Notes under the pieces: model-generated
What the model saw: the letters and a program-made list of their open reading frames with translations, nothing else
Told to the model about the DNA's origin: nothing
Database searches by the model: none
Position numbers and translations under genes: made by a program
Source of the DNA: Candidatus Saccharimonadales bacterium
GTDB taxonomy: Bacteria > Patescibacteriota > Saccharimonadia > Saccharimonadales > UBA4665
Length of the DNA: 64,000 bases
Direction of reading: 5' to 3'
Assembly: GCA_035480095.1 (NCBI GenBank)
Contig: DATIIC010000019.1
Location: 17,658-81,657 of the forward strand
Part shown: piece after piece, positions 2-64,000 of the stretch
How the letters are laid out: the number at the start of each line of letters is the position of its first letter
How positions within the stretch are numbered: the first letter of the stretch is position 1

Positions 2-1366
2 TATGGCTATGGCGCACAAGATAGTTCCTGCACAGGCCTACCGGGTGCTAACGTAAATGCCGGCAAAGACAGCAACCGTACCTCACAAACCGTGAATGGA
101 GTAACCACCACCTACTGCTACGACCAAGCTGACCGCATGATTGCCAGCAGCAATGCCACCCTTACGAACCCCGTCTACGACGCCCACGGCAACGTAGTGC
201 AGTTAGGCTCCGGCAACAGCCCGCTGCGCCTGCCCGTAGACTCTTCAGACCGCAACCGCGGCGTAGAGCAGTACGATGGCAACGGCAACGGCCTGGCCTA
301 CTACTACACCCGTGACGCCCAAGGGCGCATCATCGACCGAGACAAAATGAACATCTCCAACTGGAACTGGGTGTGGGCCAGCGACACCTTCTATGGCTTC
401 ACCGGCAGCGGTGACACCCCAGACTTTGTCCGCAGCGCCGATGGCACCCTAACAGAGAAGTACCTACAGCTACCAGGCAATGTACTGGTCACCATCCATA
501 CGCAGCAAACCGGCAATGCTGCCGCTACATACAGCCTGCCAAACATCCACGGCGACATCTTTGCCACCACCGACGCCAGCGGCATGGTAACCGGCACCTA
601 CCAAACCGGTCCCTTCGGCGAGCAGCTACCGGGCCAGGCCAGCCCGAACAACACCGCTGCCGGCAGCACCTTCGGCTATGTCGGCCAACACGAAAAGATA
701 ACCGAAACCGAATTCAGCGTCCAATTCACCCAAATGGGCGCCCGTGTCTACATAGCATCCATGGGCCGCTTCCTCTCTGTCGACCCCGTCCAAGGCGGCA
801 CAGCCAATGCCTACGTGTACGTAAGCGACCCCGTCAACGACTTCGACCTCACTGGCGAATGGGGCTGGAAAGACCTCGGGAATATAGCAAGTTTTGCTTC
901 TATGATTCCAGGGCCAATAGGCATGGTGGCAAGTGGCGTTGCTGCCGTAAGCTACGCCGCAGCCGGGGACAAGAAAGCTGCAGCCATCGCCTGTGCCGGC
1001 ATAGCCCTTGCTGCGGTGGGTGCGGGTGCGGCAGTAACCATATACAAGGTGTCTAAGGCAGCGACAACAGTTGCCAAAGCTGGAGAGGCAGTTAAGGGCA
1101 TCAAAGGCGCCTACAGTGTGTATCATGCTAAAGATGCAGCTGGAGTCGTCAGATATGTTGGAATCACCAGCCGCAATCCTGTCGTAAGGTTCGCGGAACA
1201 TATCAGAACCGGTGCACCCAAGAACACACTTAGCTATAGCGTCCTCAGAAACGGGCTAACAAAGGGCCTGGCCAGGCAGATGGAGCAAAGACTAATAGAC
1301 AAATATGGTTTGCAAAAGAACGGCGGCCAACTCTACAATAAGATAAACTCAATAAGAAGACGCTAG
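2..1366 (+). CDS. RHS/YD-repeat polymorphic toxin, C-terminal part (5' end outside window) ending in a GIY-YIG-like nuclease toxin domain
   Basis: The frame is open from base 2 (the ORF track lists 92..1366). It has YD-repeat-like segments ([39 protein letters not shown]). An RHS-core-end-like motif follows ([19 protein letters not shown]), then a Gly/Ala-rich hydrophobic linker. The tail has SVY-x10-YVGIT..R..EH..E spacing, as in GIY-YIG nucleases. Confidence 0.7.
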
Positions 1367-1367
1367 C

Positions 1368-1820
1368 ATGGCAAAGTTTCACTCAAAAATTGGTGATGTG
1401 TTTGAAATAGCTGGTATGGAACCCGCCAGATACTTGCAGCTGGTTCACATCGACCCAGTGCAGATGAACTCGGATGTGGTCGTCGTGTACCAAGAAGGCG
1501 CCGATGAGTTTGACTTCTACACGCACACCACCGTTGAACAAGGCCTTCAGGACCAATTGTGGCGAAAAGTAGACAAAGAGCCACTAGCAGTCGACCTGGC
1601 CAAGCTTACCTTCAAACAATTCATGGAAGATGTGTTTGACGAGGGCATCGAACCTTATTGGTACTACTGGACTTGCGAGGACGCAGAGTGGAAAGAGGTC
1701 GGCCTGCAAGAGGGTATTGGGTTACGTGCGGTCGACGGAAGCATACATCCCGCAAGCGATATACTCTACCAAATTGCCCATGGTAAAAGCGAGTTCAAAG
1801 TCGACTGGCCAGGGAACTAG
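1368..1820 (+). CDS. hypothetical protein, putative cognate immunity protein of the upstream RHS toxin
   Basis: This 150-aa acidic ORF starts 1 nt after the toxin stop (TAGCATG) on the same strand. The call rests only on its position immediately downstream of a polymorphic-toxin tip. Confidence 0.5.
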   Translation: MAKFHSKIGDVFEIAGMEPARYLQLVHIDPVQMNSDVVVVYQEGADEFDFYTHTTVEQGLQDQLWRKVDKEPLAVDLAKLTFKQFMEDVFDEGIEPYWYYWTCEDAEWKEVGLQEGIGLRAVDGSIHPASDILYQIAHGKSEFKVDWPGN

Positions 1821-1840
1821 CCGCACGCCAGGACCAATTA

Positions 1841-2776
1841 CTAGGGAGTAATGTTGACGCTGAACGGAAGCGTTACGGTCTGAAACTGGTTTTCGAAGAT
1901 TAAGCTGCCAAGATAATAGCCGGCAGGTACGCTGTCCAGTGCGGCATCGCAAGTGGGGCTGTCCGCCGCGTCTAGGCTGGTGTGGCACGAATACCCAGCC
2001 ACGGTCAGTGTCAGGGTAGGCATAAAGTCGGCAACTTGCGAGAGGTCGAACTGCAGCTGGTCGAATCCGCTAAGCATTACGTCGTCGCTAGTAGCACTCC
2101 CAGAAGCAACCAGCGGTTCCGGCGCATAGACGTCAAAGATGGGCATGGGCTTCACAATCACCTGTACTGTGCCCGTGTACGTTACGCCCGCTGCGGTTTT
2201 GGCGGATAACGTGTAGTTGAACGTGCCGACCGAGACATAGGTAGACTCGGTCTTCATGGGCCAGGCAAGTTTGTATGGGGCTGGGTCTTGGGTTGTGACC
2301 TGGAATATACCAGCCGAGGCGGGGCTAAATGGCAGGTTAATAGCTTTGGCGTCATTGGTGCTAACCGCGAATGGTACGCTATAGGTAGCGCCGGCCTTGA
2401 TGGTGAAGTTCGCGCCGTCAGGCTTTTTGTACACTACAGTGGGCGACTGGCTAAAGATGAGTGCTTTGGACGTGGCAGGATTTGCATGAGCGCCGCTCGG
2501 AACGACAGGAACATCGGCAGGAGCAGCTGATGGGGTTTCGGCGGCAGCTTTGACATCAGATGCACCGAGAACCCGGGGCGGGGTTTTAGCGTGGTGTTTT
2601 GATGCGACAGCGAGTTGGCCTATGTATTTGGAACCATCCGGGTGGTACGAGAATTGAACACCCAAGACCACTAGGAGCAGCGCTATGGCCGCCAGCGGCA
2701 GTTTGAGCCACAACCAACGGGCCAAGCGGGGCAATTTGACCGTAAGAAGGGTAATGTTTGGCTGATGCATTTTCAT
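1841..2776 (-). CDS. hypothetical N-terminally membrane-anchored or secreted protein
   Basis: This 311-aa ORF has an N-terminal hydrophobic helix (WLWLKLPLAAIALLLVVLGV) followed by a Thr/Ser/Ala-rich, probably beta-rich region. An extended -10 box lies 8 nt upstream of the ATG. Confidence 0.6.
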   Translation of the reverse strand: MKMHQPNITLLTVKLPRLARWLWLKLPLAAIALLLVVLGVQFSYHPDGSKYIGQLAVASKHHAKTPPRVLGASDVKAAAETPSAAPADVPVVPSGAHANPATSKALIFSQSPTVVYKKPDGANFTIKAGATYSVPFAVSTNDAKAINLPFSPASAGIFQVTTQDPAPYKLAWPMKTESTYVSVGTFNYTLSAKTAAGVTYTGTVQVIVKPMPIFDVYAPEPLVASGSATSDDVMLSGFDQLQFDLSQVADFMPTLTLTVAGYSCHTSLDAADSPTCDAALDSVPAGYYLGSLIFENQFQTVTLPFSVNITP

Positions 2777-2784
2777 TAGGATAT

Positions 2785-2809
2785 ATTATACCACATCTGT
2801 CAATACCTG
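2785..2809 (-). promoter_or_regulatory. extended -10 promoter (TGGTATAAT) with a conserved upstream block, 8 nt from the ATG at 2776
   Basis: The minus strand reads CAGGTATTGACAGATGTGGTATAAT, then ATATCCTA, then ATG. A near-identical block occurs at 55644..55668. Confidence 0.55.
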
Positions 2810-2823
2810 GCGAGTACCGCAAG

Positions 2824-3761
2824 TCAGACCAGTTTTTGACGGCGGGCCAGGAGGAGGGCGAAGACGCCGGGGACAAGCGGCAGCCAGTAGGTAATGAGGC
2901 GGTACACGAGGACCGCCGCGCCGGCGGTTGGTGACGAAACCCCGTAAGCTACAAAGCCGGCGAACAGGCCGGCTTCGGCGCCAACTAGACCGCCGGGCGT
3001 AGGTGTGGCAGTACTGGCGAGCATGCCCAGCGAGAAGACTATGAAGGCTTGCAGCAACCCGATGTGAATCTGCAAAGAATGCGCAGTGGTAAATAATATG
3101 GTAGTAGACAAGGTGGTGATACACACTGCCACCAGTGCCGCGGCGGCCAGTTGGTGCAGGCGAAATTTACGCACACTCGCCAGCAGGTTTTTTAGAAAGC
3201 GGCCAGCGCGGCGACGTGCGGCAGGCATAACCACCAGCAGCACTACTAAGCCAGCACAGAAACTACCGGCCAGGCCAGGTGGAAGTGGCGGCCGTCCAGA
3301 AACCGGTGCAGCACACTCGGATAAAACACCAGCACCCCGGCTAGCAACGTGACATGCACCGTAATGCCGACCAGGTTGTTAATGGAAACCACCACCGTTG
3401 CTTCGGCGGCCGTATGCTTTCGCTTGAAAAGATAGTACCCAACCAGCCCCAGGCTACCCAGCGCGGCAGGCAGCAGCCGGTTCACGAACGCCGTCGACAG
3501 CTCCACCAAAAACGTTTCGGCCAGCCGCAGTTTGTGCAGCGCCAACACGCCGATGCAAACAGCCGACAAACCATACACCACAACCACCAACAATAGGGAA
3601 ACAACTAGCCATGGGATACTAGCGCCGCGCGCCAGTTCCAGGCTGCGGTGCACTACACTCCAATTACGCGCCAGCACGAACGCCGCGGCCGCCAGCAACA
3701 CCACACTTACGCCCACCCGCAGCAATACAGCACGTTTGTTGGGTCGTTTGGATGCCGGCAT
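2824..3761 (-). pseudogene. flippase-like / lysylphosphatidylglycerol-synthase-TM-region family membrane protein, split into two frames (frameshift or sequencing error)
   Basis: ORFs 3246..3761 (171 aa) and 2824..3243 (139 aa) are both polytopic. The second carries a PGGLVGAEAGL...YRLITYWLP signature. Together they give the length expected for one protein. The second frame stays open upstream across the first ORF's TAG at 3246..3248. Confidence 0.5.
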
Positions 3762-3769
3762 ATGGTTTT

Positions 3770-4030
3770 TTATGAGTTAGTGGTTTGGCGAGCTAGGCGG
3801 CGGTAAGCTAGGGTATTCAGGACAGCTACTGCCGCCAAGTACATCAGACCAGTAACGCAGGACTGTAGCAGCGGCGAATGCAAACTCCAAACCAGGTAGG
3901 TACCACTCGCCAGGGTGGCCGCCACCAACCCGTAGCTAACCCGCAGCTTTCGCCGGGACGGCGCCACCAAACACAGGCTGGCACAGACTAAGCTGAGTAG
4001 CGCGACCGAAACATGAAGCAGTACCATCAT
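3770..4030 (-). CDS. small hydrophobic membrane protein (86 aa) downstream of cyoE
   Basis: The ATGATG at 4025..4030 gives MMVLLHVSVALLSLV... with three predicted TM helices. The longer track ORF (to 4231) would overlap cyoE and was not used. Confidence 0.45.
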   Translation of the reverse strand: MMVLLHVSVALLSLVCASLCLVAPSRRKLRVSYGLVAATLASGTYLVWSLHSPLLQSCVTGLMYLAAVAVLNTLAYRRLARQTTNS

Positions 4031-4058
4031 ACTGGTTCTAGTGTACTCTAGAATGTGC

Positions 4059-4913
4059 TTACGGCAAAAGCGGACTGACTGCCAAGATGCCGGCCAGCGC
4101 CAGCAGCGTAATGAGCGAAAAGCCGAACATACCCCGTGCCCATTTTTCGGGCTGCTCCGACTGGAAGCCATTGACACCCTGGTACAGCCAGTACACACCG
4201 AGCACCGCCATAGCAGCCGCGAAGCTGGCACTGGCCGTACCGAACACGGTCAGCGACACCACGGAGAGCACATACAGCACGGTATACGCAATCATCCAAA
4301 CCTGGGTGCTGCGCACGCCTTTCTTTACTGGCCACACCGGCAGGCCCCCGGCCTTGTAGTCCTTCAGCCGGAAAATGCTTATGGCGTAAAAATGCGGCAT
4401 CTGCCAAAACACCATCACCAAACCAAGCAGCAGCGCAGTCAAATCGAACCGGCCGATGACGGCGGTGTAGCCGGCCACCAGCGGCACCGCGCCGGCAATT
4501 GTACCAACCAACGTACTGTGTATGGTGGTGCGTTTGGTCCAGGCATAAAACACTACGTAGTCAATGTACCCGATGGCGCCGAGTAGCGCCGTCAGCCAGT
4601 TCACGTGCAGCAGCAAGATGGCGATGCCGACCAGGCCAAATACGATGGCGATGGCCAGCAGGCGGCCAGGCGAAACCTCGCCAGTTACCGTCGCGCGCTT
4701 TTTGGTGCGGGACATTCGCGCGTCTATGCCACGGTCGGTCAGGTTGTTGGCCGCGCAGGCGGACATCACAATCAGCGTGGTGCCGATGATGGTATAAAAC
4801 AGCAATAACCAGTTGAGGTGCCAAGCACTAGCAAACAAAAACCCGGCCAGCGTCATCATGACGTTAGCGTACGTCCGCTCCGGCTTCAGCGCTTCGTAGT
4901 AGGCTTTTAGCAC
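4059..4913 (-). CDS. cyoE: protoheme IX farnesyltransferase (heme O synthase)
   Basis: It is a UbiA-family polytopic protein with the motif NNLTDRGIDARMSRTKKR. It is the last gene of the cyo operon. Confidence 0.9.
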   Translation of the reverse strand: MLKAYYEALKPERTYANVMMTLAGFLFASAWHLNWLLLFYTIIGTTLIVMSACAANNLTDRGIDARMSRTKKRATVTGEVSPGRLLAIAIVFGLVGIAILLLHVNWLTALLGAIGYIDYVVFYAWTKRTTIHSTLVGTIAGAVPLVAGYTAVIGRFDLTALLLGLVMVFWQMPHFYAISIFRLKDYKAGGLPVWPVKKGVRSTQVWMIAYTVLYVLSVVSLTVFGTASASFAAAMAVLGVYWLYQGVNGFQSEQPEKWARGMFGFSLITLLALAGILAVSPLLP

Positions 4914-4918
4914 GGCCG

Positions 4919-5287
4919 TTACAGCGAGTCTTGGCTCTTTAGGTACTGCTCAGTCTGCTGCAGCGTCATGCGGTTGTTCAGATTGTTCATAATCCACCAG
5001 GAACCAAAGACCACCAGCACCACAATCATCAGCATCAGCAGGGCGGTTGCCAGCTTCCACCGCGAGCCGGTCTCTTCGCCCACGTGCAAAAACAGAATCA
5101 TCTGTACCGCGAACTGGGCAACAGCTAACCCCGAAATGAAGAAAATGACGGTGTTGTGGTCCAGCGTAGAGCGCGTCACTAGCACATAGGCCAGCATCGT
5201 CAGCGCCACCGAGGCGATGAAGCCACCGATGTACTTTGTAAGCTTCAATGGGTGATGCGTTCCGTGTTCTGCAACTACCGATTTCAT
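4919..5287 (-). CDS. cyoD: cytochrome o ubiquinol oxidase subunit IV
   Basis: This 122-aa protein has three TM helices and follows cyoC with a 4-nt overlap. Confidence 0.8.
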   Translation of the reverse strand: MKSVVAEHGTHHPLKLTKYIGGFIASVALTMLAYVLVTRSTLDHNTVIFFISGLAVAQFAVQMILFLHVGEETGSRWKLATALLMLMIVVLVVFGSWWIMNNLNNRMTLQQTEQYLKSQDSL

Positions 5288-5895
5288 ACGCCCAAACTCC
5301 CATACAAGTAAACGATGGTGAAGATGAAAATCCAGATGACGTCCAAGAAGTGCCAGAACAAACTAAGCAGCGTTAGGCGCTTCATGATGCTGTGTGTCAG
5401 TCCCTGGGTAAACGTAAAGAAGCCCATCACCGCCATCCAAATCAAGCCAAACGTAATGTGCAACCCGTGCGTACCAACCAGCGTAAAGTAGCTGCTTAGG
5501 AACCCGCTGCGCCGCCAACTATCGCCGTCCACCACCATGTTGCGGAACTCGGTCAATTCTAACCCCAGGAAGGTTGCGCCCAGCAGGAAGGTGACGCCAA
5601 ACCACAGCAGCACCTGCTGTTTGTCGCGCCGCTGTGCCGCCAGCATGGCCATACCGCAGGTAAAACTACTGGCCAGCAGCGCCATGGTTTCCACCAGCAC
5701 GTAGGGAAGCTTGAATAGTTCTTTACCGCTTGGCCCGCCAAACGTATTACCGTGCAGCACCGCGTAAGTCGCAAACAGTGTGGCGAACAGCACGCAGTCG
5801 GTCATCAGGTACACCCAGAAACCAAAGACCGTTTTTTCGGTGGCTTCGTGCTCGATGTGTTCGAGGTCTAGCGTGGTGGAAGTTAGTTCACTCAC
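5284..5895 (-). CDS. cyoC: cytochrome o ubiquinol oxidase subunit III
   Basis: This 203-aa polytopic protein resembles heme-copper oxidase subunit III (FWHFLDVIWIFIF). It overlaps cyoB by 4 nt. Confidence 0.9.
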   Translation of the reverse strand: MSELTSTTLDLEHIEHEATEKTVFGFWVYLMTDCVLFATLFATYAVLHGNTFGGPSGKELFKLPYVLVETMALLASSFTCGMAMLAAQRRDKQQVLLWFGVTFLLGATFLGLELTEFRNMVVDGDSWRRSGFLSSYFTLVGTHGLHITFGLIWMAVMGFFTFTQGLTHSIMKRLTLLSLFWHFLDVIWIFIFTIVYLYGSLGV

Positions 5896-7877
5896 CGGGC
5901 ATACTCCTTTTGCTGATGGATGATGGCGTGCTCCATTTTTTCTACTTCCTTGGCAGTCATGATGTATTCGGGCTCGGGGTTGCTAGCGCGAACGACAAGT
6001 GTTGTCACCAGCGCCAGCAGGCCCAATACCGACAGCCAGTATAGGTGCCAAATCATGCCAAAGCCAATCGCACCGGCCAGCATACCAATCACCACACTCA
6101 GGCCCGAGTTCTTCGGCAGCAGAATGTCTTCGTAGCGCTTTACGGGTTTCTTAGCCAAGTGTTTGTCGTGCCAGAATTGGTCGTGTTCGGTCACCACGGG
6201 CAACGTGGTGAAGTTGTAAACCGGAGCGGGTGAGGGCACCGACCATTCCAGTGTGCGGCCATTCCATGGGTCACCGGTAACATCACGCCGTTCGTTGCGC
6301 TGCCAAATGCTAAGTGCCAGCTGCAGTACCTGCAGGCCAATGCCCACGCCAATCACCGCCACGCCCACACCAGCCACAATGAACAGTGGCTGCCAACCGA
6401 GTGATGGGTCGTAGTGGTCCAGGCGGCGGGTAGCGCCCATCAACCCCAAAATGTACAACGGCATGAACGCTAGCAGGAAGCCGATAGACCAACACCAGAA
6501 AGCGGCTTTGCCCAAGCCCTCGTGCAGGCGGAAGCCAAAAATCTTCGGGAACCAGTAAATTAAGCCGGCAAAGTAGCCAAACACCACACCGCCGACAATC
6601 ATCATGTGGAAGTGGGCGACCAGGAACAGGCTGTTGTGAACCTGGTAGTCGATGGCCGGGACACTCATCAGCACACCCATCACGCCACCTATTGTAAAGA
6701 TTACAACGAATCCTATAAACCACAGCATGGGCGATTTAAAGCTAATGCGCCCGCGGTACATGGTAAATAGCCAGTTAAATATTTTCACGCCAGTCGGAAT
6801 CGCAATCACGCCGGTAGCTATACCAAAGACGGCATTCACGTCCGCGCCCGCACCCATGGTAAAGAAGTGGTGCAACCACACGGTAAAGCTTAGAACCACG
6901 ATGGCCCAAATGGCCCACACCATGCTGGCGTAACCAAACAGCCGCTTGCGCGCAAACGTCGCCACAACTTCACTGTAAATGCCGAAGGCCGGTAGTACCA
7001 AAATGTACACCTCCGGGTGGCCCCAGGCCCAAATCAAGTTCACGTACATCATGGGATTGCCGCCAAAACCGCCGCTAAAGAAATGCATGCCGAGCGTGCG
7101 GTCCAGCGCCAGCAAGGCCAGCGTAACGGTCAAAATGGGGAAGGCGAAAGCAACTAGCACCATCGAGGCCATGACGCTCCAGGCGAACATCGGCATTTTC
7201 ATCAGCGTCATACCGGGTGCGCGCATTTTTATAATCGTCACCAGAAAGTTGATGCCTGAGAGCATACTGCCCACACCAGCAATCTGCAGCGCCCATATCC
7301 AGTAGTCCACGCCCACGCCTGGGCTATACGCGAGCTCGCTCAGCGGCGGGTAAGCTAGCCAACCGGCAGCCGAAAATTCACCAAAGACAAGTGACAAGTT
7401 CACCAGCGCCATACCGACTGCAAACAGCCAGAAACTGGTGGCGTTTAAGAACGGGAAGGCAACGTCACGGGCGCCCAACTGCAGCGGCAGCACTAGGTTG
7501 ATGAGCCCGAACATTAGTCCCATCGCAACAAAGAAAATCATAATGGTACCGTGGGCACTAAAAATCTGCTGGAAATGGTAGGGGTCTAGAATGCCGTGGC
7601 CATTAGCGCCCAGCGCCTGTTGCAGACGCATCAGCACCGCGTCACCGGCGCCGCGCAGCAGCATTACCAGCGCCACGATGATGTACATCACGCCAATTTT
7701 CTTAGGGTCCTGCGTGGTCAGCCATTCTTTCCAGAGCCATTTCCACCGCTTCAAAACGGTTATCAGCACCACCACGGCCAGCGCGCCAAACACCAGTGAA
7801 CCGGCACCGCCAATCGTAATAGCATCTTTCGGGAACCAGTCCCAACTCAGGCGTCCCAGCAGGCTGGCAAACATCAT
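5892..7877 (-). CDS. cyoB: cytochrome o ubiquinol oxidase subunit I
   Basis: This 661-aa protein carries heme-copper oxidase subunit I signatures (WAWGHPEVYILVLPAFG, HHFFTMG, VAHFHMM). Confidence 0.95.
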   Translation of the reverse strand: MMFASLLGRLSWDWFPKDAITIGGAGSLVFGALAVVVLITVLKRWKWLWKEWLTTQDPKKIGVMYIIVALVMLLRGAGDAVLMRLQQALGANGHGILDPYHFQQIFSAHGTIMIFFVAMGLMFGLINLVLPLQLGARDVAFPFLNATSFWLFAVGMALVNLSLVFGEFSAAGWLAYPPLSELAYSPGVGVDYWIWALQIAGVGSMLSGINFLVTIIKMRAPGMTLMKMPMFAWSVMASMVLVAFAFPILTVTLALLALDRTLGMHFFSGGFGGNPMMYVNLIWAWGHPEVYILVLPAFGIYSEVVATFARKRLFGYASMVWAIWAIVVLSFTVWLHHFFTMGAGADVNAVFGIATGVIAIPTGVKIFNWLFTMYRGRISFKSPMLWFIGFVVIFTIGGVMGVLMSVPAIDYQVHNSLFLVAHFHMMIVGGVVFGYFAGLIYWFPKIFGFRLHEGLGKAAFWCWSIGFLLAFMPLYILGLMGATRRLDHYDPSLGWQPLFIVAGVGVAVIGVGIGLQVLQLALSIWQRNERRDVTGDPWNGRTLEWSVPSPAPVYNFTTLPVVTEHDQFWHDKHLAKKPVKRYEDILLPKNSGLSVVIGMLAGAIGFGMIWHLYWLSVLGLLALVTTLVVRASNPEPEYIMTAKEVEKMEHAIIHQQKEYAR

Positions 7878-55825: not shown

Positions 55826-55900
55826 TCCGGGGTAGCGCAGCGGTAGCGCAGTTGACTGTTAATCAATTGGTCGCGGGTTCGAATCCCGCCCCCGGAGCCA
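55826..55900 (+). tRNA. tRNA-Asn (anticodon GTT), CCA encoded
   Basis: It was folded manually. The acceptor stem is TCCGGGG/CCCCGGA, the D arm is GCGC-AGCGGTA-GCGC, and the anticodon arm is GTTGA-CTGTTAA-TCAAT. The T arm is GCGGG-TTCGAAT-CCCGC, followed by G and CCA, for 75 nt in total. Confidence 0.9.
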
Positions 55901-57463
55901 TTGTGAAGAAGCGGACGTTAAAGCGTCCGTTTTCTCTTTAGAAGAGGCATTTTGGTTAGTTCTAACCTTCCTTAGACTCCGCGCGATAGCGGGGTATTTT
56001 TCTTTTATAGGGACGAACCAGGGGTAAAGCTCTATATGCACCCTTTGGTCGCGCAGCGTCAGGCTACCACCAAGCGCGGTGAACACATCGCGTCGCTCTG
56101 TATCTGTTCCGTTATTAAAAATGTACCTCGCGTTAGTGGCAAAATCAAAGACACGCTCGGTTAGTTCTAACCATTTGTCTGCGCGACGCTCCGTATCGTG
56201 CAACGCTTCCTTTAATCGCTCCAGCTCACCAGCCAACCGCTCACGCTGCTCCACATATTCCTTGTCATCGATTAGCTCACGCAGGCGTAGGCCAGTCAGA
56301 ACGTCGAGTTCGTGCTGCTTTTTAAGCACCGCGCTGGACTGGGTTTGTTGCACAACCTCCCGCTGCTCGGTTTCTTGGTCGTGGCTAGCTCGCAACACAT
56401 CCAATGCCCAATCCCGAAACTCGGGTTCGATGGTCAGGGAAGCCAGTATGTTGTCTATCTGCTCTGTGATTTGCGCTTGGGTTAGCGACCGCTGACTACA
56501 AGGTTTCTTGTGGGTACAGTGGTAATAGGTGTACTCACGGGACAGTCCCGTACGTTTGATGGCCTTTGTCTTTGTTTCGGCGGTGATTGCACAACCACAC
56601 TCGCCGCACTGGAACGGGCCACGATACAGGAAGTCATGCGTTTTGGGTCGTGGTCGGCCTTTTCGCCCAAGCAAAACCTGTACGCGGTCAAATTCCTCTA
56701 GGGTAATCATGGGTTCATGACTGCCTTTATACAGCTCACCATTATGACGAACGTAGCCTGCATAAAAAGGGTCTGTAAACGCCCTGTACAGTGTTGAACG
56801 CGACACGGGGCAATCGCCAGTTTTGCGCGTCCTACGAAGCCTGTAGCCCCAGTCGTTATTAAGCACGTCCAGCACGTCGGGGACGCTACAGTTTCCAGTG
56901 AGCATAAGCCGCCATGCACGCTGTATTAGCGACCACCTGTCGGGGTCATTGATGATTATTTTAGTGCCCTTCATGCGCTCCGGCGTATTCAGATAACCCG
57001 TGGGTGCCCAGCCCGGTTTCCAGCCCATACTAAGCTTCTTTTCGTTACCGCGCTTTACATCCTTGCTAAGCTTGGCCGAAAAGTACTGTGACTGTGACAT
57101 GGTGAGCTGTAGCATCATCATGCCCTCGGGCGAGTTATCGAACGCGTAGGAGCCGAATTTGAGGTCACGGATAGCGCCAGTACGCACGCGATAGGTAACA
57201 CCCGAAGCGTCAATTTCGTTACGCGAAAGGCGGTCGGGGTGCCATGCAATTATGCCGTGCGCCTCACCGGCATCGATGCGCCGCAGCATATCGGCAAAAA
57301 TAGGGCGATTGTCCGGCTTAAAGGCGCTGGCCGCTTCGGGCGGCAGCTCGATAATCTCCAGGTCGGGGAACAGCTCCCGCGCCTTGTCACGCTGGCTCTG
57401 TAGCGACAACGCCTGCCGTTCTTCGGCTTCGGTAGATTTACGGGTGTACAGGAAGTATTTCAT
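55859..57463 (-). CDS. large serine recombinase (integrase)
   Basis: The resolvase catalytic domain has YTRKST...DRLSRN. A recombinase domain and zinc-ribbon-like CGECGC...YYHC follow, then a coiled coil. GGAGA lies upstream of the ATG at 57463. The last 14 codons are read from the complement of the tRNA-Asn 3' half. Confidence 0.9.
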   Translation of the reverse strand: MKYFLYTRKSTEAEERQALSLQSQRDKARELFPDLEIIELPPEAASAFKPDNRPIFADMLRRIDAGEAHGIIAWHPDRLSRNEIDASGVTYRVRTGAIRDLKFGSYAFDNSPEGMMMLQLTMSQSQYFSAKLSKDVKRGNEKKLSMGWKPGWAPTGYLNTPERMKGTKIIINDPDRWSLIQRAWRLMLTGNCSVPDVLDVLNNDWGYRLRRTRKTGDCPVSRSTLYRAFTDPFYAGYVRHNGELYKGSHEPMITLEEFDRVQVLLGRKGRPRPKTHDFLYRGPFQCGECGCAITAETKTKAIKRTGLSREYTYYHCTHKKPCSQRSLTQAQITEQIDNILASLTIEPEFRDWALDVLRASHDQETEQREVVQQTQSSAVLKKQHELDVLTGLRLRELIDDKEYVEQRERLAGELERLKEALHDTERRADKWLELTERVFDFATNARYIFNNGTDTERRDVFTALGGSLTLRDQRVHIELYPWFVPIKEKYPAIARSLRKVRTNQNASSKEKTDALTSASSQWLRGRDSNPRPID

Positions 57464-57606
57464 GATTTCTCCAATCAAAAAGGGCGACTCGCTGTTCACA
57501 CAGTCAGCAGCGAAAAGCCGCCTTCCGATACGAGCCGCCCTTAATGAGCGGAATAGAAAAGACTCTTCGCGTTTTTACTGACTATGTGAACGTTAATATT
57601 ATACCA

Positions 57607-58574: not shown

Positions 58575-59285
58575 TCACGGCTTGTGTGACTTCTTGTATG
58601 CAGCGATAATTTTGCGAATATTTGATTCGTCGTACAGGCGGTCGAACTTTGCGCCAATCTCTTCGCGAATCTGTGGCGACTTCAGACCCTTGTTGTGCAG
58701 CCTGATGATTTCGTGACGAATGGCAGCACTATCCGACCTACTAACCCGTGCGCCAGGCTTAAAAAGCTTCGCTGGTTGGTACTCTTCTGCGCCCAGGACT
58801 GGGTGTGTGGCAAGCTGCTTTAAGTTGCGGTCGTACTCTTTATCGATGAACGCCTTTAGCTCGGTAGCTGATGTGTTTGGCGCTGCTAGTATCTGCAAAT
58901 AGCCGTGGGCATCGCTTGTCTTTGCCGGCACCTCCTCTGGTAATACCGTGTCTTTGTAGTACCACGCTGGGTCTTTGTGCGGGCCCCGTACGCCGTGCGC
59001 GTGGCTGATGTACTCAATGGGCGATTTGATTTGTTCAAGCAGCTTAGTATCCAACGCATCGGGGTGCAAGATGTGGTAGTAGTATGCCTGCACACATTCC
59101 CACGGTATTTTGTAGCGCTTCATTAAACGGAATACTCCCTGGTCTATAGGCTCATAACCCCAGTCGTGGCGAAACCGCTCCGTCTGCCTTTGCACGGCCG
59201 GGTCATCTATGAACGTTTTGAAAAGTCTCCACCGTCTTTCAAGCCAGACTGGTACATTTGGGGCGCTACCCATTGCATACATCAT
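58575..59285 (-). CDS. hypothetical protein with a possible C-terminal helix-turn-helix
   Basis: This 236-aa protein has the C-terminal region SAAIRHEIIRLHNKGLKSPQIREEIG, which resembles a short HTH. Confidence 0.5.
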   Translation of the reverse strand: MMYAMGSAPNVPVWLERRWRLFKTFIDDPAVQRQTERFRHDWGYEPIDQGVFRLMKRYKIPWECVQAYYYHILHPDALDTKLLEQIKSPIEYISHAHGVRGPHKDPAWYYKDTVLPEEVPAKTSDAHGYLQILAAPNTSATELKAFIDKEYDRNLKQLATHPVLGAEEYQPAKLFKPGARVSRSDSAAIRHEIIRLHNKGLKSPQIREEIGAKFDRLYDESNIRKIIAAYKKSHKP

Positions 59286-60129: not shown

Positions 60130-60135
60130 TATACT
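60130..60135 (+). promoter_or_regulatory. -10 box TATACT, 6 nt upstream of ATG 60142 (leaderless arrangement)
   Basis: TATACT is followed by AGAGTT and then ATG. Confidence 0.45.
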
Positions 60136-60141
60136 AGAGTT

Positions 60142-60879
60142 ATGCCATCAGACTACTGGGAGTTAAATTACAAGGAGCTCAACAAAGACACGGTAAAGAT
60201 ATGCTACCTATGTGGCAGAGAGCTATCTGGGGAGGTCAGCCCTGACCACGTTATACCCACCGGACTATTCGCCAAAGGCTCCCCGAAACGACCCCAGCTT
60301 GCCGTGCACCACGGTTGCAACAACAGCAAGTCGTTCGAGGATGAGAAGTTTATCCGACAAATTCAGGTCATGGGCTCACTGAATCCCGATGCCGAAGCCG
60401 AAGCAATAAAGCTGTTACACAAAGCCCAAGCCCAAAAGCCAAACGCTTACATAATAGGCAAGTCCCACCTACTTCGCGACTACAAGAAAGCTGTGGGCCT
60501 GCTGGATAAGACCTCGTGGGGCATGCAGCTTGTGGTGGACGGTGATGTAAAGTCCGCTCTGCACTTTGGCAAGGAAAACGCCGAGCTGGTTGCCGCGTAC
60601 ATGAAACGACTGTGCAGGGGGCTGTACATAAGGAATGTACCTGACGCGACCCCCGCAATACCCCGCCTTAGGGGTGTACAGTATGCCGCAGCAAAACTCG
60701 CAGGCAATCTGGAAGAATTCACCACGCCTGTAAACACCCTTATGCAACAGTGTGGCTATGTCCAGCAGTGGGGCAACCGCGTGCGCTACGCAGGGAACTT
60801 CCTATCATCAGATATCAGCAAAGGCTTCGTGTTCGTTGAGTTTTATGGCGAGGTCGGCTATCTGGCTATGTTCGAGTAA
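60142..60879 (+). CDS. HNH-type (HNH_5-like) endonuclease-fold protein with an uncharacterised C-terminal domain
   Basis: CYLCGRELSGEVSPDHVIPTGLF....VHHGCNNSKSFEDE fits the HNH_5-type pattern. It is 245 aa. Confidence 0.65.
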   Translation: MPSDYWELNYKELNKDTVKICYLCGRELSGEVSPDHVIPTGLFAKGSPKRPQLAVHHGCNNSKSFEDEKFIRQIQVMGSLNPDAEAEAIKLLHKAQAQKPNAYIIGKSHLLRDYKKAVGLLDKTSWGMQLVVDGDVKSALHFGKENAELVAAYMKRLCRGLYIRNVPDATPAIPRLRGVQYAAAKLAGNLEEFTTPVNTLMQQCGYVQQWGNRVRYAGNFLSSDISKGFVFVEFYGEVGYLAMFE

Positions 60880-60885
60880 TACCGT

Positions 60886-60891
60886 TAGAAT
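60886..60891 (+). promoter_or_regulatory. -10 box TAGAAT, 6 nt upstream of ATG 60898 (leaderless arrangement)
   Basis: TAGAAT is followed by TGCGCT and then ATG. Confidence 0.45.
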
Positions 60892-60897
60892 TGCGCT

Positions 60898-62589
60898 ATG
60901 AGCACACGAAAAAATTCCAACTTACAGGGCCGTGACGCCGAAGAAAACGTTCTCGAATATTTGCAAAGCTTCCTAAATCAGTTGGGGTTCACTGGACTAA
61001 AGAAGCGAAAGCAGTCCAGCGGAAGCCAGCAGGGGAAAGATATCCAGATGGCTTGGGTTTCCAGCGGGAACAAGTACAACTGGCACTTTGAAGTAAAATC
61101 CCAACGCTCCGAGGAAATTCTAAAAAAGGACATCCTAGAAAAACTCGATGACACAAAACGCTCCGGCCACGAAATAGACTGCTGGTGCCTGGTTGCACTC
61201 CACCGCAATCCAAAAAATGAACTGGATGACGCCATACAGGATTGGAACGCGCGAAAGCAATTTCCCTTTAAGATAGTTGTGTGGTCTCCCGAAACGTATC
61301 TTCCCGAGCAAATCCGCGCTATCGACCAAGCCGTTTACGGGAAGATATACGGCGACACAGAACCCCCGGCCCCGAATTATGACCTTGGGGTTTTCAAAAA
61401 CGACGTCAATACACTAAGTCAGGAAGGCCGCCGTGCTCGTGAGCTTTACCCTAAAGACATCGCGAACAGCCTTTTGGACAGCCGTGATGATGCATCCGGC
61501 ATGCTGGGTGTACTGGACAGGGTATACGGATTTGGGCGTGAGCATAAAGACTTTACTATCGAGAACGTTCAGCACACCTCGACTGGGACATCTGCATCAA
61601 TCATGCCTCGCGAAGGCAGACAGGTTACGATTACCGGAACCTTTAAGCTAGACCCCGCCAAGCAGAAAGAATACAACGAATTCCTTAAGCTGGAACGCTC
61701 CGCGATTGAGCTCGAGCCACAGGAGATAGAGAGCATTGAAGCTCTTGTCGGCACAACCAGCATCCTGCCAAAAGACGGGGGTAATAAACTTATAATCTCA
61801 CGCCCTCCGCCAGAGTTTCCGGTGTTCTCCCTATACAGCAAAAAGCGTAATTACTTGGCGCTCAAGCGCCTAGATTTGCCTTACAAGGAAGTGCGGGACG
61901 GCGCACTTGTATTTGACAACTTTGGCAGCGGCGACCCTACATGGGTATCCCTCGTAATAGAGAAAGACGGCCTATCCTTCAAAAATGTTCACGCTAACCG
62001 GGAAAGCCCTGACTACGAAATCGAGCTCGAGCTTAGCACGCTAGATTTCTGGGAAGATACGGTTACGAATCAAGCCATTACCGTAGAAGACGTATCTACC
62101 CACAAGAAGATACTCGAGGGCGTCTTTATGCCCACGAACATTGATGTGGGCGACACCATGGATGCTATACACGACTTCAGACTAATCCTAAAGAAGCTGC
62201 GCGACATACGCGACTTTTGCGGACAAAAGCTGCCCGTACCTAGGCAGCTAACGAGGGAGGAATACGATACAGTAATCCGCATTCATCGCGCTATAACAGA
62301 GAAGGAAGTGAAGGTCAGGCTAAATGGCTCGAGTTTTGTTGTTCCAAGCTCCAAAGCCGTTGACGACATACCGGAAGGGCTACAAAGCGAATATTACACA
62401 GTGCTCGACCCATACATGGAGGACCTGTTCGGTATACCCATAGACCTTGGCAAGGTGTTAATGGAACACCACAATATGCGTATCGAGAAGAAGGCCCAAA
62501 AGGCTGGCGTACGGGTAACCATGTCCGCAGAGGACGATAGTTCATACAGCATTTTTAAGTTTGGGGATGCCATACCCGAAGGTGCTTAG
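60898..62589 (+). CDS. 563-aa protein: N-terminal Mrr-like PD-(D/E)xK restriction-endonuclease fold, with a large uncharacterised C-terminal region
   Basis: The N-terminus GRDAEENVLEYLQSFLNQLGF...QQGKDIQMAW...WHFEVKSQ fits the G..(F/A)E...G(F/Y)...D(I)...E(V)K layout of Mrr_cat-type nucleases. The remaining roughly 420 aa show no recognised motif and no P-loop. Confidence 0.55.
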   Translation: MSTRKNSNLQGRDAEENVLEYLQSFLNQLGFTGLKKRKQSSGSQQGKDIQMAWVSSGNKYNWHFEVKSQRSEEILKKDILEKLDDTKRSGHEIDCWCLVALHRNPKNELDDAIQDWNARKQFPFKIVVWSPETYLPEQIRAIDQAVYGKIYGDTEPPAPNYDLGVFKNDVNTLSQEGRRARELYPKDIANSLLDSRDDASGMLGVLDRVYGFGREHKDFTIENVQHTSTGTSASIMPREGRQVTITGTFKLDPAKQKEYNEFLKLERSAIELEPQEIESIEALVGTTSILPKDGGNKLIISRPPPEFPVFSLYSKKRNYLALKRLDLPYKEVRDGALVFDNFGSGDPTWVSLVIEKDGLSFKNVHANRESPDYEIELELSTLDFWEDTVTNQAITVEDVSTHKKILEGVFMPTNIDVGDTMDAIHDFRLILKKLRDIRDFCGQKLPVPRQLTREEYDTVIRIHRAITEKEVKVRLNGSSFVVPSSKAVDDIPEGLQSEYYTVLDPYMEDLFGIPIDLGKVLMEHHNMRIEKKAQKAGVRVTMSAEDDSSYSIFKFGDAIPEGA

Positions 62590-62594
62590 GCCAG

Positions 62595-62603
62595 TGTTAT
62601 CAT
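62595..62603 (+). promoter_or_regulatory. extended -10 box TGTTATCAT, 6 nt upstream of ATG 62610 (leaderless arrangement)
   Basis: TGTTATCAT is followed by GTGCAC and then ATG. Confidence 0.45.
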
Positions 62604-62609
62604 GTGCAC

Positions 62610-63125
62610 ATGAACCATCAGCACTCCCAGCTAATAAGTAAGTTCGTAAGCTCCCAAAGCATGCTGGCAATAATGACGCTAGTTCAGGCGATGACTGCCG
62701 CCGAAGTGTCTTCCACAGCTTTTATAAACACGGGGCAGAAATTGAAAACCGACCCGCCCGGAGCCGTCATGGAGCTCCTCGCCCATGCTCGTTTCTTTAG
62801 CGAGTCCTGCGGATGGTTTGCTCTAGCCGCGCGCCGCCTAAGGCACGACACTACGGACGGCATCGGTCAGTTACTAACAGACAACAAGCAACTTATAGAC
62901 AATCTGTACGGCGTACGGGTTGCCGTAAACCACCATTACAACGAAGACCTGGCCGACGAATACCGAAAAAATAACTACACGCCCGGCAGGCACCTAGACA
63001 AGTTTGCATTCAAGTTTCGCCCCAAGCTCGATGACATGAGTTTTCAGATTGGCACCCTCGAGGTTAGCATCGCGGCCCAACTGGCTGCGATGCAAAAGAT
63101 AGAGAAAGCTTTACTAGAGCTTTAG
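62610..63125 (+). CDS. hypothetical helical protein
   Basis: It is a 171-aa ORF if started at ATG 62610. The track's GTG at 62604 abuts the -10 box. No motif was recognised. Confidence 0.45.
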   Translation: MNHQHSQLISKFVSSQSMLAIMTLVQAMTAAEVSSTAFINTGQKLKTDPPGAVMELLAHARFFSESCGWFALAARRLRHDTTDGIGQLLTDNKQLIDNLYGVRVAVNHHYNEDLADEYRKNNYTPGRHLDKFAFKFRPKLDDMSFQIGTLEVSIAAQLAAMQKIEKALLEL

Positions 63126-63260
63126 GCTTGCACAGTCGCAGCCCTAACGCCCAGTACTACGACAAATCGGGGCTAAAATAAGCAGCAGCCTCTGTTTTTA
63201 TTTTAGACCTGGTGGAGTCCTAAGTTACAACTTACTCATATCTTTGTTATGATTGTGCCA

Positions 63261-64000
63261 ATGAGTAGAACAAATCCTGTTATTGCCTATTACCACACCT
63301 TTGAATCGAAGCTTGGCTACAGATGGCTTCAAGGTATTAAGCATTTTGGCTACTATCCCGAGGGGCAGGAAAGCCTACCCAAGAGAGAAGCGCAGCTGCT
63401 TATGAATGACCAGCTTGCAAAAAAGCTGGACTTACCAAAAGGTGCGGTCGTGCTTGACGCAGGATGCGGTGAAGGCGGTGTTGCGCTGTACTTAACCAAG
63501 AAATATCACCTTCGGGTTCAAGGTATTGATTTGCTCGACTTTAACGTAGAGCAAGCGCGCACAGGCGCAATTACGGCTGGCGTTGACCCAAACCTATTCC
63601 AGGAAGGTTCTTACATGAAGTTACCTTACGCAGATAACACATTCGACGGCCTATACACCATGGAGACACTTGTACATGCGCCAGACTACAGGGTTGCTAT
63701 GCGGGAGTTCCACCGTGTTCTGAAGCCCGGGGGCAAGTTGGTATTGTTTGAATACACCATTACTCCACCTTCAGAAACAGCAAACAAAGAGGGCTTGGCC
63801 GCTATACGCAAAGTAAATGAATACGCCTCAATGCCCGCCTTCAACGAATTTGAGCATGGCACCTTTGAAGATAAGCTTACAAAAGCTGGTTTTAAACACG
63901 TTAAAGAGCTAGACATAACCGACCGAATGCGGCCGATGCTTGCTTATTTTGCGCGAAAGGCACGGATACCGTATTCAATTATTAAGGCCCTGGGGCTCCG
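63261..64000 (+). CDS. class I SAM-dependent methyltransferase (3' end outside window)
   Basis: This ORF is not in the track because it has no stop in the window. Its translation contains VLDAGCGEGG (motif I), ADNTFDGLY and LKPGGKLVLFEY. TATGAT lies 7 nt upstream of the ATG at 63261. Confidence 0.8.
   Translation, partial: MSRTNPVIAYYHTFESKLGYRWLQGIKHFGYYPEGQESLPKREAQLLMNDQLAKKLDLPKGAVVLDAGCGEGGVALYLTKKYHLRVQGIDLLDFNVEQARTGAITAGVDPNLFQEGSYMKLPYADNTFDGLYTMETLVHAPDYRVAMREFHRVLKPGGKLVLFEYTITPPSETANKEGLAAIRKVNEYASMPAFNEFEHGTFEDKLTKAGFKHVKELDITDRMRPMLAYFARKARIPYSIIKALGL

Follow-up and report, generated by a model that had tools for sequence, protein, structure and literature searches.

A rare predicted nuclease with a separate C-terminal module as the candidate anti-phage gene of a tRNA-Asn island in Candidatus Saccharimonadales

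We analysed a stretch of 64,000 nucleotides (nt) from a Candidatus Saccharimonadales bacterium (GenBank assembly GCA_035480095.1, contig DATIIC010000019.1, positions 17,658 to 81,657), hereafter called the window, in which three neighbouring genes, A, B and C, lie on an island integrated at a tRNA-Asn gene. The original prediction, made from the letters of this DNA, had presented them as one three-gene nuclease-rich cassette and a candidate defence system. Our comparisons point instead to a reading that we consider fairly probable, in which A, B and C are independent cargo and B is a defence-type protein complete in itself, with a C-terminal module that gates a PD-(D/E)xK nuclease. Judging from sequence comparison and structure prediction, B is the only well-supported candidate anti-phage nuclease among the three. 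The genes, and the two parts distinguished in B, are the following:

60142-60879, + strand: gene A, open reading frame (ORF) of 245 amino acids (aa)
60898-62589, + strand: gene B, ORF of 563 aa
60898-61392, + strand: N-terminal domain of B, residues 1-165, predicted restriction-endonuclease fold (AlphaFold2, Foldseek and conservation)
61393-62589, + strand: C-terminal region of B, residues 166-563, a linker and a module of ~350-400 aa (homologue comparison)
62610-63125, + strand: gene C, 171 aa from its ATG, or 173 aa from a GTG at 62604

The N-terminal domain of B contains the motif G46-K-D48-I-Q...F64-E65-V-K67-S-Q that had been noted earlier, and both the structural model and the conservation pattern assign it to the PD-(D/E)xK restriction-endonuclease fold with an E...D...ExK signature, that is, to an active-looking predicted nuclease. 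The AlphaFold2 model of residues 1-165, built from a 26-sequence alignment, reached a predicted local distance difference test score (pLDDT) of 89.6 and a predicted template-modelling score (pTM) of 0.86. Foldseek matched this model in the PDB to MspJI, EcoT38I, FokI, HamA (Hachiman), the Avs4 nuclease domain, Cap4 and NucS/EndoMS, all with probabilities of 0.97-1.00, and further to AF1548 and PaqCI; in a viral library, the matches were proteins named 'restriction endonuclease'. Across an alignment of 138 homologues, E15 is found in 128 sequences (the other 10 have gaps), D48 in 137, E65 in all 138 and K67 in 136, with Q44, G46 and K82 likewise near-invariant, and the four signature residues are invariant in the 26-sequence alignment. 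The earlier label of an Mrr-type PD-(D/E)xK protein therefore stands as regards fold and active site, but not as regards the family threshold: Mrr_cat (PF04471) gave no match to B at E<=1, and it was detected below threshold in five of 26 B-domain relatives (best E=0.012). By these comparisons, the nuclease domain of B is a distinct family outside Pfam. The Pfam scan found no NTPase or P-loop family in B either, in agreement with the earlier statement that the protein has no P-loop.

The architecture of B seems to be both new and very rare. A search of 5.8 billion clusters returned P0002 (57% identity) as the only relative, in which the first 135 residues are far more conserved with respect to B than the remainder, and an HMMER scan of 1.84 billion representatives, which stand for ~15 billion proteins, added only two further full-length relatives, P0015 and P0016, giving the window protein and three full-length sequences in all. 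The same scan produced 166 matches at E<=0.001; among the best 150 of these, the match is confined to residues ~4-160 of B in each of the 149 other proteins except seven. When 13 proteins sharing only the N-terminal domain were scanned at full length with Pfam, a STAND-type NTPase (nSTAND5, NACHT or AAA_16) was found downstream of the B-like domain in nine, the remaining four being one protein with a sub-threshold nSTAND5 match, one with a weak TPR match only, and two with an upstream protein kinase or Ras-like GTPase. Most relatives have the B-like domain at, or close to, the N-terminal end of a STAND NTPase, the place that the effector takes in Avs-like proteins; in several of the STAND proteins it is internal, behind a Pup-like or TIR domain. 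In addition, seven of the 26 B-domain relatives match the PADLOC candidate family PDC-M58A (best E=8.5e-7), and single weak PADLOC matches among them are to LmuA and to an endonuclease effector of the cyclic-oligonucleotide-based anti-phage signalling system (CBASS). In this regard, restriction-endonuclease-fold domains (NaeI-like, Mrr-like and a new clade) have been described as the commonest nucleic-acid-targeting effectors in NTP-dependent conflict systems (PMC7159879).

In the C-terminal module of B, residues ~187-555 matched nothing in Pfam, NCBIfam or PADLOC, nor any PDB sequence; a PDB sequence search with the module profile gave no match, and PDB sequence searches with A, C, the C-terminal region of B and the three family profiles returned chance-level matches only. 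An AlphaFold2 model of full-length B, for which the alignment held two sequences, was unusable (pLDDT 33.8). The module recurs, in addition to the full-length relatives P0002, P0015 and P0016, in five further proteins (P0030, P0068, P0143, P0149 and P0154), and the parts that precede it differ: P0030 and P0068 have hydrophobic, transmembrane-type N-termini where B has its nuclease, and in P0149 a Cys-rich stretch and then a hydrophobic helix come before it. In the searches made, B-type proteins and the module were confined to island loci of Saccharimonadales-like type and to other contigs from metagenomes. On its island, P0030 is accompanied by Vsr, a C5 DNA methylase, RE_Bsp6I, an IS200-type transposase and a PLD-family protein, and P0068 adjoins a DUF3800 protein.

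Sensor-effector proteins such as Avs, Cap4 and 2TM-SAVED combine a constant module with interchangeable effectors. A constant module joined to swappable nuclease or membrane domains, as in B and its relatives, would by analogy conform to this sensor-effector pattern of defence proteins (Avs; Cap4 versus 2TM-SAVED), and it suggests that the C-terminal module of B may act as a sensor. The likeness to Avs/STAND proteins lies first in the nuclease domain, which is homologous to the domain upstream of STAND-type NTPases (E down to 1e-25) and whose model superimposes on the nuclease domain of Avs4 (PDB 8dgf); it extends to the order of parts, with the effector N-terminal and the regulatory part, presumptive in the case of B, C-terminal. 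B differs from them, however, in having no NTPase, P-loop, TPR or WD40 repeat sensor detectable by Pfam, and its ~400-aa C-terminal module is unrelated by sequence to any STAND part. With Cap4 of CBASS (PDB 6wan/6wam), B shares a restriction-endonuclease-fold nuclease followed by a C-terminal module of the size of a ligand sensor, and the replacement of the nuclease by transmembrane helices in sister proteins of B recalls the relation of Cap4 to 2TM-SAVED. Pfam found no SAVED or CARF match in B or in the seven relatives scanned, and, unlike in CBASS, no CD-NTase or other cyclase lies beside B, the B relatives or the module relatives.

The assignment of the three genes to independent cargo comes from their distribution. 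Besides the window, we compared four loci with B relatives, one with an A relative and six with C relatives (relatives are designated P and loci L). A second member of the A/B/C trio is absent from every other locus retrieved, and the neighbours differ each time; since no other locus holds two of the three families, a three-component system is not supported, and the cassette proposed earlier dissolves at each locus where its families recur. In the sister island L001, whose recombinase is 70% identical to that of the window, an unrelated gene for a 583-aa membrane/helical protein precedes the B relative; in L020 the gene before it encodes a 449-aa protein, likewise unrelated; and in L021-L023 the B relative is solitary, with a divergent gene on one side and a convergent one on the other. 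The upstream gene overlaps the B relative in two of these four loci (L001 and L020); when compared as possible relatives of A or of each other, these upstream partners proved unrelated. The sole A relative lies at the end of a different island beside a tRNA-Trp gene (L002), without B or C, and the C relatives occupy six further contexts, none of them with A or B.

In line with this, PADLOC-DB v2 matched none of the three proteins at E<=1, which bears out the earlier view that no named defence system fits the locus, and scans with Pfam, NCBIfam, PHROGs and PADLOC yielded nothing significant for any of the three. Scans of genomes, metagenomes and viral contigs returned no B-family relatives, and those of viral contigs no A- or C-family relatives. 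A phage structural or replication origin of A, B or C was ruled out, given that there is no significant PHROGs match and no relative on viral contigs. For similar scans this is a caution: that nuclease genes lie close together and in one direction on an island does not in itself make them a system. We consider that the three-gene framing should be dropped, that B is the substantive part of the locus, and that it adds to the candidate immune repertoire of tiny genomes.

As for the 449-aa gene of L020 (6665-8014), which overlaps the start of the B relative, its product contains DDDRGDGGNDGY, a Gly/Asp-rich stretch that recalls the loops of Mrr-type nucleases. A long helical region follows this stretch, and BLAST found the protein unrelated to A.

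An anti-phage role of B is plausible, with the sensing, the activation, the DNA substrate and the defence function being what we infer. In the model that we favour, A, B and C are neighbouring but independent cargo in the variable part of an island that the recombinase integrates at tRNA-Asn, and the C-terminal module of B would keep the N-terminal nuclease inactive until a cue of infection is sensed; the released nuclease would then cut DNA, so that phage replication is stopped or the infected cell is killed. A nuclease effector with a regulatory module on a mobile island is already known, and it is the domain layout of B that appears new by sequence comparison. B illustrates how a nuclease effector that is as a rule coupled to STAND NTPases can be separated from them and coupled to a different module, and, if this module is a sensor, B would represent a novel means of setting off a suicide nuclease. 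The stronger proposal, that the module is an undescribed, NTPase-independent infection sensor with interchangeable killing domains, and B a member of a new single-gene anti-phage family, is a tentative one, which we hold to be possible but rather doubtful. To our knowledge, the genomes of Patescibacteria, or Candidate Phyla Radiation (CPR), are small and mostly without CRISPR. Defence genes have been reported to be enriched in horizontally acquired regions of these bacteria (PMC12455944).

Several points weigh against an independent, defence-dedicated B. The nuclease could act for the benefit of the island and not in defence, B itself has no PADLOC match, and no fold or motif is recognisable in its C-terminal module. 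Furthermore, with an overlapping upstream gene in two of the four other B loci, B may often work together with a variable partner, a role that A could fill in the window; the tight co-directional packing of the three genes (18 and 20 nt) is also compatible with an operon; and the observation that the families do not co-occur is drawn from few loci, four for B and one for A.

The nearest contender takes B for a stand-alone restriction enzyme, either type IV (modification-dependent) or type IIS, in which cleavage would be the task of the N-terminal domain and DNA recognition that of C-terminal domains, and which would act by direct cutting of incoming DNA and not by abortive infection. Structurally, the N-terminal domain is indeed closest to the cleavage domains of modular restriction enzymes, namely MspJI, EcoT38I, FokI and PaqCI; type IV enzymes need no partner methylase, and no DNA methylase adjoins B; and the B relative of L021-L023 is solitary. 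MspJI (PDB 4f0p/4f0q) is the top structural match of the domain (E=3.5e-5, TM-score 0.52, query-normalised) and shares with it a D...(E/Q)xK-type active site as well as the character of a single-polypeptide modular enzyme without a methylase. In MspJI, an SRA-like reader is N-terminal and the nuclease C-terminal, whereas the domain order of B is reversed and neither an SRA nor another reader domain was detected in it. More broadly, no DNA-binding family was detected in the C-terminal region of B, the close relatives of its nuclease domain are overwhelmingly STAND NTPase proteins and not restriction enzymes, and the occurrence of the same module on transmembrane N-termini (P0030 and P0068) is hard to square with DNA recognition and fits more readily with a sensor that governs exchangeable effectors. 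We therefore regard the restriction-enzyme interpretation as unlikely.

Gene C raises the question of a partnership with B. Its family comprises nine homologues of 45-64% identity with the invariant motifs ARFFxExCGW, R103-x4-H108 (VNHxYN) and FxIGT; R103 and H108, with their x4 spacing, are invariant in the 10 sequences and bear a by-eye likeness to the HEPN RNase motif. C itself gave no Pfam match, no HEPN family match and no PDB sequence match. From its sequence and contexts, C is most simply seen as a small protein of the sort typically carried by mobile islands, standing on its own. It could alternatively be the cognate antitoxin, immunity protein or regulator of the nuclease-like gene upstream, B and C then forming a toxin/immunity-type module. 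In four of the seven contexts, C does lie directly after a co-directional large conflict-type gene, a different one each time: B in the window, an SLFN_AlbA_2 protein in L003, a 466-aa protein in L004 and, in L008, a 314-aa protein containing RNxxxH. However, the other three contexts (L006/L007, L010/L011 and the ERR12040025 contig) offer no co-directional gene immediately upstream, none of the four other B loci has a C-family neighbour, and a separate -10-like element precedes C. C may have the role of a partner but need not have it, and we judge a dedicated B-C module improbable.

Among the contexts of C, the L004 one places it third after a 541-aa and the 466-aa protein, 4 nt from the latter. 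These genes (L004 4970-8516, also in L005) make up a tight three-gene operon, in which the N-terminus of the 541-aa protein is PD-(D/E)xK-like by eye (IDG...QAK) and the 466-aa protein has a sub-threshold HEPN_RiboL-PSP match (E=5e-5); as a possible multi-gene system, this operon is more promising than the window genes. In L006/L007, C comes after a tRNA-Asn and a LexA-like gene: in this stretch (L006 7735-8851, also in L007) the C gene is ~190 nt downstream of the tRNA-Asn, no recombinase is present, and a 112-aa gene overlaps the 3' end of the C gene. The locus may represent what is left of a decayed island belonging to this family. The L008 contig (6217-11818) further encodes a CBASS-type nucleotidyltransferase (SMODS, AGS_C), an Mrr_cat nuclease and a DUF87/TrwB-like ATPase, neighbours which place the C family in a defence/mobile neighbourhood. 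The two remaining contexts (L010/L011 and the ERR12040025 contig) have opposite-strand neighbours only, and one of them adjoins HipA, IS1595 and relaxase-type genes.

That A, B and C form a single three-component defence system specific to the window island is, in our view, highly improbable: the co-directional arrangement with gaps of 18 and 20 nt, the two nuclease-type signatures in an island context and the overlapping upstream partners of the B relatives in L001 and L020 speak for it, but those partners are related neither to A nor to each other, no pair of the three families recurs, each gene has a separate -10-like element at leaderless distance, and PADLOC recognises none of the three.

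Within the first ~70 aa of A we found the motif C21xxC24...D35-H36-V-I-P...H56-H57-G-C59-N60-N61, which has the CxxC...(D/E)H-[IV]-[IV]-P...xxC-N-N spacing of HNH_5 (PF14279). The Pfam score of HNH_5 on A (E=0.076) is 13.4 bits against a cut-off of 27.5 bits, the alignment takes in no more than positions 1-23 of the 56 in the profile, and PHROG 338 'HNH endonuclease' matches residues 16-69 with E=0.054. The motif thus supports the earlier HNH_5-like label, whereas both profile scores remain below threshold, and A differs from HNH_5 also in an extra C-terminal part of ~170 aa that lies outside the HNH-like stretch. Its sole homologue, P0004, keeps C21, C24, D35-H36, H56-H57, C59 and N60-N61, a retention that is uninformative on constraint at an overall identity of 86%; a tblastn search of A against plasmids gave no match. 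On sequence grounds A is probably a small protein of the HNH type (beta-beta-alpha-metal finger) that stands alone.

The locus of the A relative, L002, shows a run of six co-directional genes beside the tRNA-Trp (740-5254), with only sub-threshold Pfam matches and the A relative as the last gene, and is apparently another variable island. The run includes a second, unrelated 242-aa protein with CxxC...HILP...CxxC; this protein was considered as a distant A paralogue and set aside, as nothing significant was found beyond the motif.

With regard to the arrangement of the three genes in the window, the list of ORFs and the reading of the junctions agree with the earlier description of closely spaced co-directional genes, all on the + strand, with 18 nt between A and B and 20 nt between B and C. 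The reading of the junctions likewise recovered the three -10 boxes placed by the original prediction exactly 6 nt from each ATG:

60130-60135, + strand: -10-like hexamer TATACT, 6 nt 5' of the A ATG (direct reading)
60886-60891, + strand: -10-like hexamer TAGAAT, 6 nt 5' of the B ATG (direct reading)
62598-62603, + strand: -10-like hexamer TATCAT, preceded by TGT, 6 nt 5' of the C ATG (direct reading)

A scan for consensus promoters found no -35 element for these hexamers. A TANNNT at a fixed offset is expected for about one gene in 64 and was observed in three out of three, and chance is thus an unlikely explanation. Elsewhere in the window, ~11 of the 45 long ORFs of the host also have a TANNNT placed 5-8 nt 5' of the start codon, and the start codons with such a hexamer are these:

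2776, 11072, 17514, 22038, 45850, 46476 and 48691: start codons with TANNNT
51991, 53300, 55631, 59273 and 63261: further start codons with TANNNT

In those ORFs, about a quarter of the long ORFs of the window, the hexamer leaves no room for a Shine-Dalgarno sequence, which suggests that leaderless transcripts are common in this genome. A, B and C each appear to have their own leaderless-type promoter. Since the same arrangement is seen at the methyltransferase gene downstream of C, at a 236-aa island gene and at ~11 of 45 host ORFs, it is not specific to the cassette and would correspond to a genome-wide, leaderless-type start architecture. The 236-aa gene (58575-59285, - strand) probably has its true start at the fifth codon, ATG 59273, as a TGnTATGAT -10 element lies within its annotated 5' end, 7 nt before that ATG; the C-terminus of its product has a weak helix-turn-helix match in PHROGs (E=0.16).

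Downstream of C lies the gene that the original prediction had described as that of an S-adenosylmethionine (SAM)-dependent methyltransferase, which Pfam confirms as a class I enzyme:

63261-64000, + strand: class I SAM-dependent methyltransferase, running past the end of the window (Pfam)

The Pfam matches are to Methyltransf_11 (1.1e-20) and also to Methyltransf_25, Methyltransf_31, UbiE and CMAS, with no match to a DNA methylase family; a restriction-modification pairing with this neighbour was therefore ruled out, the methyltransferase being of the wrong class. The gene has a promoter-like site, GTTACA-18-TATGAT, whose TATGAT (63248-63253) ends 7 nt before the ATG at 63261.

The island that carries these genes is defined on its left side by two features:

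55826-55900, + strand: tRNA-Asn (GTT), integration site of the island (ARAGORN)
55859-57499, - strand: large serine recombinase, the island integrase, overlapping the 3' end of the tRNA (Pfam)

The recombinase matches Resolvase (4.9e-14), Recombinase (1.2e-6) and Zn_ribbon_recom, and its true start is likely the MKYF... codon at 57463. Its last ~14 codons lie on the strand opposite the 3' part of the tRNA-Asn (55859-55900), an overlap that ties the C-terminus of the integrase to the sequence of the attachment site and that is retained in L003, L012 and L013. The protein is 57-70% identical to the recombinases of L001, L003 and Candidatus Saccharimonadales metagenome-assembled genomes (MAGs); in a scan of GTDB species genomes, the closest ones were from such MAGs (67, 62 and 57% identity), and in two of these three MAG loci, as in the metagenomic L003, the same tRNA-Asn is overlapped by the 3' end of the recombinase gene. 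On the left side of the tRNA, the genes of the host, among them an SmpB homologue, a glycosyltransferase and a glucosidase-like gene, are syntenic with one such MAG and with L003 (34-74% identity). No second copy of the tRNA 3' end (attR) was found within the window, and the far boundary of the island is therefore placed beyond position 64000.

The GC content falls to 0.50-0.52 at 56-63 kb, compared with 0.55-0.62 over most of the window, and this drop, together with the tRNA-Asn and the recombinase, substantiates the AT-richer integrative element proposed earlier. The window as a whole has a GC content of 57%, against 38-48% in every related Saccharimonadales/CPR locus fetched (L001-L023), by which its lineage appears unusually GC-rich for its group. 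A small backbone gene, a relative of the 101-aa ORF, is common to the sister islands L001, L003 and L014, and the cargo varies: L001 carries a 161-aa protein, the 583-aa protein and the B relative, and L003 four unrelated genes, the SLFN_AlbA_2 protein, the C relative and a different methyltransferase. The tRNA-Asn islands of Saccharimonadales would thus resemble a swap-shop for rare conflict-type genes. The tRNA-Asn island of L012, in a Saccharimonadales MAG, encodes on the - strand (2258-6093) a 1059-aa fusion of an SF1 helicase (AAA_11/AAA_12) with a PLD-type nuclease, which ends in a Cys-rich tail and has a 218-aa gene directly downstream.

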